From: Escherichia coli
GTDB taxonomy: Bacteria > Pseudomonadota > Gammaproteobacteria > Enterobacterales > Enterobacteriaceae
Reading direction: 5' to 3' (one strand)
Length of the DNA: 64,000 bases
Assembly (NCBI RefSeq): GCF_003334255.1
Contig: NZ_QOWU01000014.1
Shown: positions 3,614-60,150 of the stretch, one piece after another
How positions within the stretch are numbered: position 1 is the first letter of the stretch
Layout of the letters: each line of letters begins with the position of its first letter
Made by a program: the position numbers and the translations under genes
The notes under the pieces: generated by a model
Told to the model about the DNA's origin: nothing
Database searches by the model: none
The model's input: the letters and a program-made list of their open reading frames with translations, nothing else

Positions 3614-6934
<3,321 letters not shown>

Positions 6935-13574: not shown

Positions 13575-13664
13575 TTACTTCAGGTATTTCAGAACAGCAT
13601 CAAGCAGTTGCAGTGCTGCAACAATGAGTTTGAGGATAAGAATGGCGATATCCACCAGGTTCAT
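13575..13664 (-). CDS. tisB: Type I toxin TisB (29-aa membrane peptide)
   Basis: Minus-strand ATGAACCTGGTGGATATCGCC… translates to MNLVDIAILILKLIVAALQLLDAVLKYLK then stop. Too short for the ORF track. Confidence 0.85.
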   Translation of the reverse strand: MNLVDIAILILKLIVAALQLLDAVLKYLK

Positions 13665-13898: not shown

Positions 13899-13918
13899 TA
13901 CTGTATAAATAAACAGTA
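13899..13918. promoter_or_regulatory. LexA (SOS) box between divergent tisAB and istR
   Basis: TACTGTATAAATAAACAGTA, a perfect CTGT-N8-ACAG. Confidence 0.8.
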
Positions 13919-14026
13919 ATATTTGGACAAAACGCAAACTGTGATCGATACTCAACTATGCACTAAATACGTCAAAATTCGTGCCGAAATTGCGCGTTCT
14001 GCGCGGAACACGTATACTTTCAGTGT

Positions 14027-14101
14027 TGACATAATACAGTGTGCTTTGCGGTTACCAGCCGCAGGCGACTGACGAAACCTCGCTCCGGCGGGGTTTTTTG
14101 T
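14027..14101 (+). ncRNA. istR: IstR-1 antitoxin sRNA (the longer IstR-2 would start ~65 nt upstream)
   Basis: …gttgacataatacagtgtgctttgcggttaccagccgcaggcgactgacgaaacctcgctccggcggggtttttt matches my recollection of IstR ending in its intrinsic terminator. 5' end is approximate. Confidence 0.65.
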
Positions 14102-30900: not shown

Positions 30901-30995
30901 TGGCGGAAGATCACAGGAGTCGAACCTGCCCGGGACCGCTGGCGGCCCCAACTGGATTTGAAGTCCAGCCGCCTCACCGGAGACGACGATCTTCC
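30901..30995 (-). tRNA. selC: tRNA-Sec (selenocysteine, UCA anticodon)
   Basis: Reverse complement of 30901..30995 is GGAAGATCGTCGTCTCCGGTGAGGCGGCTGGACTTCAAATCCAGTTGGGGCCGCCAGCGGTCCCGGGCAGGTTCGACTCCTGTGATCTTCCGCCA, recognised as E. coli selC. Confidence 0.9.
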
Positions 30996-48633: not shown

Positions 48634-49458
48634 CTATTTCTTCTCTGTAATTTTTACACTGTTTTCCAACTGCTTGATGCTGACCTGCGGGGTCGGCAAC
48701 TCCTCAGGCATGGTTCCGCCAAGTTCCTGAATGGTTTGCCTCACCTTGCGACCCACGTCAAAGTGTGTGGTGTTTGCTTGCTGTTTTGAATTCACGCCAT
48801 CCCGCTTGAGTTTTTCTTCTGTTTGGGTAGCTCGAAAGAGATTAGCCGCCAGTTCTGTTGAACCCATATGATCCAGGATCTTCTGATTCTTTTTCAGCCC
48901 CTTCCGCTGATGAATAGCTTTCTGATCTAATCCACCATACAGCCCCCGGTAACCATGATTCTGAAATATGGCGAAATCGATAGCTGTCGCTCCCCCAGCT
49001 TGCTGCGCTGCCTCAACCAATTGTTTGTTATGTTCTTTCAATTCATTTCTCAGAAAAAGACGCTTTTCGTCTTCACGAAGTTGCCTGAAAGCTTCATCGT
49101 CAGCCAGCTCCTGCCGTCGGGTCTGGATAGCAAAATAAGTTTGCCCTGCCGCAATAACCGGTTTCGCAGGGTCGCCGTTTTGTACTACCAGGTAACAGGC
49201 ATAGCGGGAGAGATGAACATCTTCAAGTTCTCGTTGAGCCCCTGAACCTAATACAACCATTTTGGTGGTTTCAACGAAATGGTCAGATGCAGCTTGATTG
49301 CTGGCTTCGCACGCTTGAGTCGCGCGGGCCAGTACCTTTTGAAAATTGCGCCAGTCCCGATAATCCAGTAACGGTGCCAATTCTCTAGCTGACCAAAATT
49401 CTTGCCCTTCAGTGCCATAATGCCGTATTTCTTCAAAAGGTTGATGATGTTCGTTCAT
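48634..49458 (-). CDS. dinD: DNA-damage-inducible protein D
   Basis: ORF 48634..49470 minus; start at MNEHHQPFEEIRHYGTEGQEFW. LexA box lies upstream. Confidence 0.85.
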   Translation of the reverse strand: MNEHHQPFEEIRHYGTEGQEFWSARELAPLLDYRDWRNFQKVLARATQACEASNQAASDHFVETTKMVVLGSGAQRELEDVHLSRYACYLVVQNGDPAKPVIAAGQTYFAIQTRRQELADDEAFRQLREDEKRLFLRNELKEHNKQLVEAAQQAGGATAIDFAIFQNHGYRGLYGGLDQKAIHQRKGLKKNQKILDHMGSTELAANLFRATQTEEKLKRDGVNSKQQANTTHFDVGRKVRQTIQELGGTMPEELPTPQVSIKQLENSVKITEKK

Positions 49459-49501
49459 TGCCCACTCCATGTGATATCGATTGCAAAGAAAGTAAATCTG
49501 T

Positions 49502-49521
49502 AACTGTATTTATATACAGTT
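49502..49521. promoter_or_regulatory. LexA (SOS) box of dinD
   Basis: AACTGTATTTATATACAGTT, a perfect CTGT-N8-ACAG about 45 bp upstream of the dinD start. Confidence 0.75.
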
Positions 49522-49678
49522 GTGAGTATCTCACGTTCTCAGTGTGCTGGGCAAAAAAACATCGCAAAATCTGGAGCAGGCACGCAAAACAGAATTGAAG
49601 TTGCGGGGAAGAAAAATGCCGCTCTGTTTGAGTGGGCGGCATTTGTGAAGGCTGAAAAGTAAGAATTAGTGTTACGAG

Positions 49679-50542
49679 TTACTCAATATTCTGAATCTGC
49701 TCGCGCATCTGCTCAATCAACACTTTCAGCTCGATGGCGGAGTTTGTCACTTCGGCATTGATAGATTTCGACGCAAGAGTGTTCGACTCGCGGTTGAATT
49801 CCTGCATCATAAAGTCCAGACGACGACCAACGGCTTCTTTTTTCTTCAGAATGTTGTAGGTCTCTTTGACATGCGCTTCCAGGCGGTCCAGTTCTTCGGC
49901 AACGTCAATTCGTTGTGCCAGCAGAACCAACTCCTGCTCCAGACGGTTGTTTTCCAACTGAACCTGAGCATCTTCCAGCTTCGCGACCAGACGCTCACGC
50001 TGCCATTGCAGGATTTCCGGCATATGGGCGCGGACTTTGACCACTTCGGCGGTGACGCCTTCCAGACGCTGCTCGATCAATGCTTTCAGTGCCTGACCTT
50101 CGGTTTCGCGCGCGACAATAAAGTCGTCCAGCGTACCATCCAGCGCCGCGAGAATTTCAGCGGCAATGGCGTCGAGATCCTGCTCCTGGGCTGCCATCAC
50201 GCCCGGCCAGCGCAGAATATCAACCGGGTTGATTTCCCCTTCGTCACTCTGCATTTTTACCCAGTTCGCGGCAGTTACCAGCTGTTTAGCCAGTTTTTCA
50301 TTGAGGATCAGCTCACCTTGTGCGCTAACATCTGGCTCATAGCGCAGGGTACATTCCACTTTACCGCGCGTCAGGCGAGAACGAATACGCTCGCGAACGA
50401 CAGGTTCAAGGCTACGGAACTGCTCCGGCAGACGAAAGTAAGTTTCCAGATAACGCTGGTTTACCGAGCGCATTTCCCAGGTTGCGCTCCCCCATTCACC
50501 CTTGATTTCACGCCGGGCGTAGGCGGTCATACTGCGGATCAT
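49679..50542 (-). CDS. yicC: YicC-family protein (UPF0701; reported endoribonuclease family)
   Basis: 287-aa ORF MIRSMTAYARREIKGEWGSATWEMRSVNQRYLE. Confidence 0.85.
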   Translation of the reverse strand: MIRSMTAYARREIKGEWGSATWEMRSVNQRYLETYFRLPEQFRSLEPVVRERIRSRLTRGKVECTLRYEPDVSAQGELILNEKLAKQLVTAANWVKMQSDEGEINPVDILRWPGVMAAQEQDLDAIAAEILAALDGTLDDFIVARETEGQALKALIEQRLEGVTAEVVKVRAHMPEILQWQRERLVAKLEDAQVQLENNRLEQELVLLAQRIDVAEELDRLEAHVKETYNILKKKEAVGRRLDFMMQEFNRESNTLASKSINAEVTNSAIELKVLIEQMREQIQNIE

Positions 50543-50668: not shown

Positions 50669-51385
50669 ATGCGTCCAGCAGGCCGTAGCAATAATCAGGT
50701 GCGTCCCGTTACCCTGACTCGTAACTATACAAAACATGCAGAAGGCTCGGTGCTGGTCGAATTTGGCGATACCAAAGTGTTGTGTACCGCCTCTATTGAA
50801 GAAGGCGTGCCGCGCTTCCTGAAAGGTCAGGACCAGGGCTGGATCACCGCAGAGTACGGCATGCTGCCACGTTCTACCCACACCCGTAACGCTCGTGAAG
50901 CGGCGAAAGGTAAGCAGGGTGGACGCACAATGGAAATCCAGCGTCTGATCGCCCGTGCTCTTCGCGCGGCAGTAGATTTGAAAGCGCTGGGTGAGTTCAC
51001 CATTACGCTGGACTGCGACGTGCTTCAGGCTGATGGTGGCACGCGTACCGCGTCGATTACGGGTGCCTGCGTGGCGCTGGCAGATGCGCTACAGAAGCTG
51101 GTGGAAAACGGCAAGCTGAAAACCAACCCGATGAAAGGGATGGTAGCCGCAGTTTCTGTCGGTATTGTAAACGGTGAAGCAATTTGCGATCTGGAATACG
51201 TTGAAGACTCAGCCGCAGAGACCGACATGAACGTAGTGATGACCGAAGACGGGCGCATCATTGAAGTGCAGGGGACGGCAGAAGGCGAGCCGTTCACCCA
51301 TGAAGAGCTACTCACCTTGTTGGCGCTGGCCCGAGGGGGAATCGAATCCATTGTAGCGACGCAGAAGGCGGCGCTGGCAAACTGA
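50669..51385 (+). CDS. rph: Ribonuclease PH, full length
   Basis: ORF 50645..51385; start at [17 protein letters not shown]-terminus …[20 protein letters not shown] is complete. Confidence 0.9.
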
Positions 51386-58679: not shown

Positions 58680-59050
58680 AGTAAATAGCTGACTTATGGA
58701 TGTGCTGGGGATTCTATGTATTTAGCTGTGGCTTTACCATTACTTTTCCCGTTTTTGACTTAAATAGCAATTTACCCGCCAATTCTTGCTGAACATCTAT
58801 ACTTTTTTTGTATTTTTATGCGATTCATTGATTTCTGCTGTACGTGCAGGAAGGAATCGCAGAGCAACAGTGAAAGAATATGGTTGCTAATGATTTTATT
58901 TGATTGATTTCTTTATTGAAAATCAACAATGTGCTTAAAAATCATTCGGGTCGGATTGCCGCGAAAGAAGTGATACACTAGCGCGTCAATATCAGTGCGG
59001 TATCAGTATTCAGGTAGCTGTTGAGCCTGGGGCGGTAGCGTGCTTTTTCT

Positions 59051-59091: not shown

Positions 59092-60150
59092 GTGGATAAG
59101 CCATTTCGAAGAATTTTGCTCATTAAGATGCGTTTTCATGGGGATATGTTATTAACTACTCCCGTCATTAGTTCGCTGAAAAAAAATTACCCTGACGCAA
59201 AAATCGATGTGCTGCTTTATCAGGACACCATCCCGATCCTGTCTGAAAATCCAGAGATTAACGCGCTCTACGGCATAAAAAATAAAAAAGCAAAAGCCTC
59301 AGAAAAAATTGCCAACTTTTTTCATCTCATCAAGGTATTACGTGCCAATAAGTATGACCTTATCGTCAATCTTACCGATCAATGGATGGTTGCTATACTG
59401 GTTCGCTTATTAAATGCTCGTGTGAAAATTTCCCAGGATTATCATCATCGGCAGTCTGCTTTTTGGCGTAAAAGTTTCACCCATTTGGTGCCGTTGCAGG
59501 GTGGAAATGTGGTGGAAAGTAACTTATCCGTGCTGACACCATTGGGACTTGATTCGTTGGTGAAGCAGACAACCATGAGTTACCCGCCTGCAAGCTGGAA
59601 ACGTATGCGTCGCGAACTTGATCACGCTGGTGTTGGACAAAATTATGTGGTTATCCAACCTACGGCGCGGCAAATCTTCAAATGCTGGGACAACGCCAAG
59701 TTTTCCGCTGTGATTGATGCCTTACATGCTAGTGGTTATGAAGTCGTTCTGACGTCCGGCCCGGATAAAGACGATCTGGCCTGCGTCAATGAAATTGCGC
59801 AGGGATGCCAGACGCCACCAGTAACGGCGCTGGCTGGAAAGGTGACCTTCCCGGAACTTGGTGCGTTAATCGATCATGCGCAGCTGTTTATTGGCGTTGA
59901 TTCCGCACCGGCGCATATTGCCGCTGCAGTTAATACGCCGCTGATATCGCTGTTTGGTGCGACAGACCATATTTTCTGGCGTCCCTGGTCAAATAACATG
60001 ATTCAATTCTGGGCGGGAGATTACCGGGAAATGCCAACGCGCGATCAGCGTGACCGAAATGAGATGTATCTTTCGGTTATTCCGGCGGCAGATGTCATTG
60101 CTGCTGTCGATAAATTACTGCCCTTCTCCACGACAGGTACGTCGTTATGA
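59092..60150 (+). CDS. waaQ: LPS core heptosyltransferase III (GT9)
   Basis: ORF with non-ATG start at 59092; true start may be 59116 or the ATG at 59128. Product matches WaaQ. Confidence 0.8.
   Translation: MDKPFRRILLIKMRFHGDMLLTTPVISSLKKNYPDAKIDVLLYQDTIPILSENPEINALYGIKNKKAKASEKIANFFHLIKVLRANKYDLIVNLTDQWMVAILVRLLNARVKISQDYHHRQSAFWRKSFTHLVPLQGGNVVESNLSVLTPLGLDSLVKQTTMSYPPASWKRMRRELDHAGVGQNYVVIQPTARQIFKCWDNAKFSAVIDALHASGYEVVLTSGPDKDDLACVNEIAQGCQTPPVTALAGKVTFPELGALIDHAQLFIGVDSAPAHIAAAVNTPLISLFGATDHIFWRPWSNNMIQFWAGDYREMPTRDQRDRNEMYLSVIPAADVIAAVDKLLPFSTTGTSL

Follow-up and report, generated by a model that had tools for sequence, protein, structure and literature searches.

The 20-bp palindrome at 49502..49521 of the window, by which we mean the whole stretch of 64,000 nucleotides analyzed, is almost certainly the LexA operator (SOS box) of the Escherichia coli dinD gene. 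The dinD SOS box has long been known and is already published, and the operator is unchanged here. This analysis itself established that the box is there, where it lies and how good it is, which gene follows it, and that the same 20-mer stands before SOS genes elsewhere.

The 20-mer at 49502..49521 is AACTGTATTTATATACAGTT, or AACTGTATATAAATACAGTT when read in the sense of dinD, on the minus strand. An earlier note on this DNA had placed a perfect CTGT-N8-ACAG motif at these same coordinates, and this was confirmed: the inverted CTGT and ACAG arms stand 8 nt apart at 49504..49519 (CTGTATTTATATACAG), and the spacer between them is A/T throughout. Of the 20 positions in the box, 17 agree with the 20-bp LexA consensus TACTGTATATATATACAGTA, and the box, with its A/T-rich spacer, is also close to the consensus when this is written as TACTG(TA)5CAGTA. 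The yicC-dinD intergenic spacer spans exactly 49459..49678. Within it, 43 nt separate the box from the dinD ATG at 49458, in good agreement with the figure of about 45 bp given previously, and 33 nt of leader lie between the box and the GGAG of the ribosome binding site. The features of the locus are as follows.

48634..49458, minus strand: dinD coding sequence, 274 aa, its extent agreeing with the RefSeq annotation of an identical locus
49465..49468, minus strand: Shine-Dalgarno sequence GGAG, 6 nt ahead of the dinD ATG
49502..49521, unstranded: almost certain LexA operator (SOS box) of dinD, called from its sequence, a matrix score of 25.5 bits, an identical published box and a published heterology index of 2.2
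49525..49530, minus strand: putative -10 hexamer GATACT, picked by eye, 4/6 against TATAAT, 3 nt upstream of the LexA box
49549..49554, minus strand: putative -35 hexamer TTGCCC, picked by eye, 4/6 against TTGACA, with an 18-nt spacer to GATACT
49614..49644, minus strand: hairpin followed by a T-rich tract, folding at -12.4 kcal/mol (z = -3.6)
49679..50542, minus strand: yicC, the next gene upstream and co-oriented with dinD, outside the LexA unit, with its TAA at 49681..49679

The gene downstream of the box had been named as dinD, and two observations bear this out. Its product matches the NCBIfam equivalog NF008573 over its full length (residues 1-274), scoring 502 bits where the curated cut-off is 242, and E. 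coli genomes identical at this locus are annotated with dinD there. A Pfam Bro-N domain occupies the N-terminal part of DinD (aa 10-105). The gene order is that of the E. coli yicC-dinD-yicG locus, and a query of 341 bp spanning the box finds many complete E. coli chromosomes with 100% identity. Among 5426 complete E. coli genomes, the dinD promoter region was matched in 4849, with dinD and yicC annotated, and 577 gave no match to it. An alternative dinD start at ATG 49470, obtained by extending the open reading frame, has no Shine-Dalgarno sequence and differs from the annotated start, and was set aside. One paper reportedly placed dinD beside pyrE on the map.

The bare pattern CTGT-N8-ACAG occurs three times in the window where 0.63 occurrences are expected, and three were reached in 4 of 100 shuffled sequences. 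Since the bare pattern is thus weak evidence by itself, a symmetrised weight matrix of 20 positions was built from 16 other E. coli boxes taken from PMC3009722, with the dinD and istR/tisB boxes excluded from its construction. The dinD box scored 25.5 bits on this matrix, above 13 of the 16 training boxes, and the box between tisAB and istR scored 28.1 bits. The third-ranked site in the 64-kb window reached 11.7 bits, which lies within the range of the random maxima of 200 simulated 64-kb sequences (mean 12.0, standard deviation 2.2, largest 18.2 bits), so that the matrix scan of the window returned no third site above background. Matching to the 20-bp consensus with up to three mismatches gave two hits in the window and none in 100 shuffles. 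The CTGT-N8-ACAG match at 59950 was rejected as an SOS box: its spacer is G/C-rich, it sits inside a coding region of 352 aa, and it scores -0.07 bits. From the matrix scores and the rejection of this match, the window holds exactly two credible LexA boxes, which upholds the earlier count of two LexA-controlled loci. Recovery of the dinD box serves as a useful positive control for the scan and matters little otherwise. The second locus comprises these features.

13575..13664, minus strand: TisB open reading frame
13899..13918, unstranded: the other LexA box, TACTGTATAAATAAACAGTA, 28.1 bits, between tisAB and istR
13970..14099, plus strand: istR, Rfam RF01400, 150 bits

Both boxes have the form CTGT-N8-ACAG with a spacer made up entirely of A and T. 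Both are also among the best consensus matches in E. coli, the tisAB/istR box with a heterology index (HI) of 1.8 and 28.1 bits, the dinD box with an HI of 2.2 and 25.5 bits. The yicC-dinD and tisAB/istR loci, 35.6 kb apart, bring two of the top consensus matches of the LexA regulon together in a single window.

The LexA dependence and the damage induction of dinD are taken from the literature. For dinD, PMC3009722 tabulates a LexA motif identical to the 25-mer in the window, ACAACTGTATATAAATACAGTTACA, and in the same study the dependence of dinD on LexA was confirmed with lexA(Def) and lexA(Ind-) strains by RT-qPCR. PMC11228462 treats dinD as a classical SOS gene: AZT induced it 9.8-fold, and RNA-seq with lexA3 showed a 12-fold dependence on LexA cleavage. 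The table of that paper gives dinD an HI of 2.2, bettered only by tisB (1.8) and umuD (2.1), and HI values are said there to correlate with LexA binding in vitro. During a ciprofloxacin time course the dinD transcript rose by up to log2 4.5, and DinD protein increased as well (PMC11002266). A review places dinD under the heading 'known SOS box' (PMC6590174), and promoter fusions of dinD have been made into SOS reporters (PMC3374874). As to function, a passage of PMC4849656 citing Uranga et al. 2011 describes DinD as promoting the removal of RecA filaments.

These experiments were done in K-12, and they apply to the window sequence because the box of K-12-type genomes (L003 and L012) is identical to that of the window. 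The K-12 dinD (pcsA) box shares at least the 25 nt of ACAACTGTATATAAATACAGTTACA, the distance to the start codon and the neighbours yicC and yicG, and no difference in the operator was found between the window and K-12. For the K-12 box, a passage of PMC6590174 cites Lewis et al. 1994 and Fernandez de Henestrosa et al. 2000.

The promoter hexamers, and with them the steric mechanism of repression, were read from the sequence. We infer that the dinD promoter is TTGCCC-18-GATACT, which would be weak by consensus (8/12). A promoter scan of both strands over 49300..49800 at a threshold of 9/12 returned nothing. Candidate -10 elements inside the box (TATATA and TATAAA) were rejected, as no acceptable -35 element stands 16-18 nt upstream of them. 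Farther upstream, the hairpin at 49614..49644 is probably the intrinsic terminator of yicC. A terminator scan of 49300..49800 returned nothing, the hairpin loop of more than 8 nt exceeding the limit of that scan. If real, the terminator would shield dinD from read-through, and with yicC ending in a terminator of its own, dinD would rely on its own promoter.

The SOS regulation scheme, in which LexA binds its operators and undergoes self-cleavage stimulated by RecA, is summarised in PMC6590174, and its application to this locus would run as follows. In the undamaged cell a LexA dimer would sit on the 20-bp palindrome. The palindrome begins 3 nt past the likely -10 hexamer, and a dimer bound there would overlie the transcription start region and block initiation by RNA polymerase. 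As the box is near consensus, with its published HI of 2.2, tight repression is expected. On DNA damage, RecA filaments formed on single-stranded DNA would bring about LexA self-cleavage, the operator would be freed, and dinD would be transcribed.

It is very improbable that the box is a bidirectional operator which also drives an unannotated plus-strand transcript, encoding a small RNA or a peptide, away from dinD. Divergent transcripts, those of tisAB and istR-2, are indeed controlled from the other box, at 13899..13918 (PMC2577331), and a plus-strand open reading frame of 46 codons (49522..49662) begins directly after the dinD box. However, the whole-window Rfam scan at the gathering threshold gave no family at the dinD locus, the promoter scan described above found no promoter-like site on either strand of 49300..49800, and a plus-strand transcript would run into the putative yicC terminator hairpin and then be antisense to yicC. 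The portions of the literature on the locus that we consulted likewise make no mention of such a transcript. The dinD box acts on a single gene on one strand, unlike the tisAB/istR box, which has a transcription unit on either side, the two diverging from it.

The word itself recurs well beyond E. coli. The exact 20-mer AACTGTATATAAAYACAGTT was found in 96 stretches of a 298-Gb collection holding one genome per species, where about one occurrence would be expected by a rough estimate that assumes equal base frequencies. Nearly all of the 96 stretches come from Gamma- or Betaproteobacteria, the groups whose LexA recognises a motif of the CTGT-N8-ACAG type. In at least 42 of them the 20-mer lies no more than 300 nt upstream of an open reading frame of an SOS class, as assigned by BLASTP against one reference open reading frame per class, the references having been identified with NCBIfam. 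The classes found behind the 20-mer are DNA polymerase IV (DinB), UmuD, LexA and ImuA, and further the error-prone DnaE2, a radical SAM protein of the PA0069 type, a YebG-like protein (a weak match) and the integron integrase. Because it stands before SOS genes in other taxa, the same 20-mer is, judging by its placement, used as an SOS operator in other species.

What the dinB, umuD, lexA, imuA-dnaE2 and integron integrase boxes of other Gamma- and Betaproteobacteria share with the dinD box is the identical 20-mer, placed 0-100 nt before the start codon. They differ in the genes regulated, and no DinD homologue was found at these loci except on one contig resembling E. coli contamination (L061). 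The scan of species representatives for the 20-mer returned no Escherichia representative and no orthologous dinD promoter from another species.

It is scarcely credible that the palindrome is an A/T-rich inverted repeat which arose by chance between two genes and regulates nothing. The bare pattern is no more than mildly enriched in the window, and one of its three matches, that at 59950, is clearly accidental and lies within a coding region. The full 20-mer, however, reaches 25.5 bits where the best random sites average 12.0 ± 2.2, its sequence is that of the published dinD operator with LexA-dependent induction, and the same word precedes SOS genes in dozens of other species.

Ten E. coli alleles were alike in both arms, CTGT and ACAG, and in the two putative promoter hexamers, and the sole change in the box is a T to C substitution at spacer position 14, the variant still scoring 23.5 bits. 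Taking the box and the hexamers as a footprint, 1 of 32 positions was variable in these 10 alleles against 19 of 188 elsewhere. The pattern is in keeping with a functional site, but the difference was not significant (Fisher p = 0.32), and no weight is placed on it.

Outside E. coli, two DinD homologues were compared. In Klebsiella pneumoniae, where the homologue has 74% identity and follows ibpB (L006 2001..2560), no site above 7 bits was found in the 500 nt upstream, and the same was true of the 500 nt upstream of a Thiothrix plasmid homologue with 66% identity, which follows parB (L007 2001..2560). Control by LexA does not extend to the DinD family as a whole, and for dinD it seems specific to the Escherichia locus. 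With the Klebsiella and Thiothrix homologues lacking a LexA site, conservation across the family gives no argument for LexA control.

Among the PADLOC models, DinD hits PDC-S13, a candidate defence family, strongly (410 bits), and it also matches the N-terminal part of a model named 'Type I specificity subunit'. Full-length relatives of DinD were found in Streptococcus satellite phages and on plasmids of Zymomonas and Thiothrix. Its best PHROG match is a family of unknown function with weak similarity to the anti-repressor Ant. The DinD family looks mobile and associated with defence.

The slot between yicC and yicG can also hold something other than dinD. E. coli strain MS 16-3 lacks both dinD and its SOS box, and its yicC-yicG slot (L111 27776..40300) is filled by an element of about 12 kb that encodes a tyrosine integrase, a primase and an Icd-like gene in the manner of a P4-like satellite. 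The element is bounded by 19-bp direct repeats, GGTACAGTCTTGGGTACAA.

From the Bro-N domain, the satellite-phage and plasmid relatives, the PDC-S13 match and the P4-like island in the slot of MS 16-3, one might propose that dinD is a gene of mobile-element origin which E. coli brought under one of its tightest LexA operators and used as an SOS-triggered anti-phage or anti-satellite function; the absence of the operator from the Klebsiella and Thiothrix homologues would make it an acquisition specific to Escherichia. We consider this proposal unlikely. If it were true, dinD would fire upon prophage induction, and an anti-phage or anti-satellite role would replace, or add to, the modulation of RecA filaments by DinD.

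Behind the same operator, the window and K-12-type genomes encode different alleles of DinD. DinD of the window has 83% identity to K-12-type DinD; the differences fall almost only in residues 12-85, the Bro-N part, and the C-terminal 190 residues are nearly identical. This distribution suggests that the N-terminal module may have been recombined or may be diversifying. The nearby rph gene of the window (50669..51385, plus strand) is full length, encoding 238 aa and starting MRPAGRS, unlike the rph-1 frameshift allele of common K-12 laboratory strains, so the DNA is not that of a K-12 strain bearing rph-1.

A natural disruption of the operator was seen in strain 005008, where the ISL3-family element ISKox3 splits the dinD LexA box at its centre (L002 2671..2686 and 4001..4016). 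The target-site duplication is the 8-bp spacer of the box, ATTTATAT. The half-sites now lie about 1.3 kb apart, the native promoter is severed from dinD, and the remnant of the box adjoining dinD scores 0.8 bits. At least 226 of the 5426 complete E. coli genomes have this same ISKox3 junction. Operators split by ISKox3 provide a natural experiment on the uncoupling of dinD from LexA.

Two database records from outside E. coli carry parts of the locus. The record L008 (MG065691.1, 'Campylobacter phage A11a', marked UNVERIFIED) runs from the 3' end of yicC to the start of dinD with the box included, and the end of a contig from a 'Lentisphaeria' metagenome-assembled genome (L061 7847..8039) holds the box and 43 DinD residues with 100% identity to E. 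coli. The E. coli dinD sequence in these two records looks like contamination or misassembly.

The two SOS loci of the window are also linked by a short repeat, located as follows.

48667..48682, plus strand: the 16-nt sequence CAACTGCTTGATGCTG, at the 3' end of dinD
13595..13610, minus strand: its inverted copy, in the tisAB unit

Given the inverted copies, the tisAB and dinD mRNAs, both SOS-induced, are complementary there. The tisAB-dinD antisense match has been reported before, with no effect on dinD mRNA (PMC2577331).

Elsewhere in the window, the Rfam models identified, apart from istR, only tRNA-Sec (30905..30995, minus strand) and a JUMPstart element (59004..59042, plus strand), the latter just upstream of the 352-aa open reading frame at 59092. 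In MS 16-3, a second integrase island adjoins tRNA-Sec.
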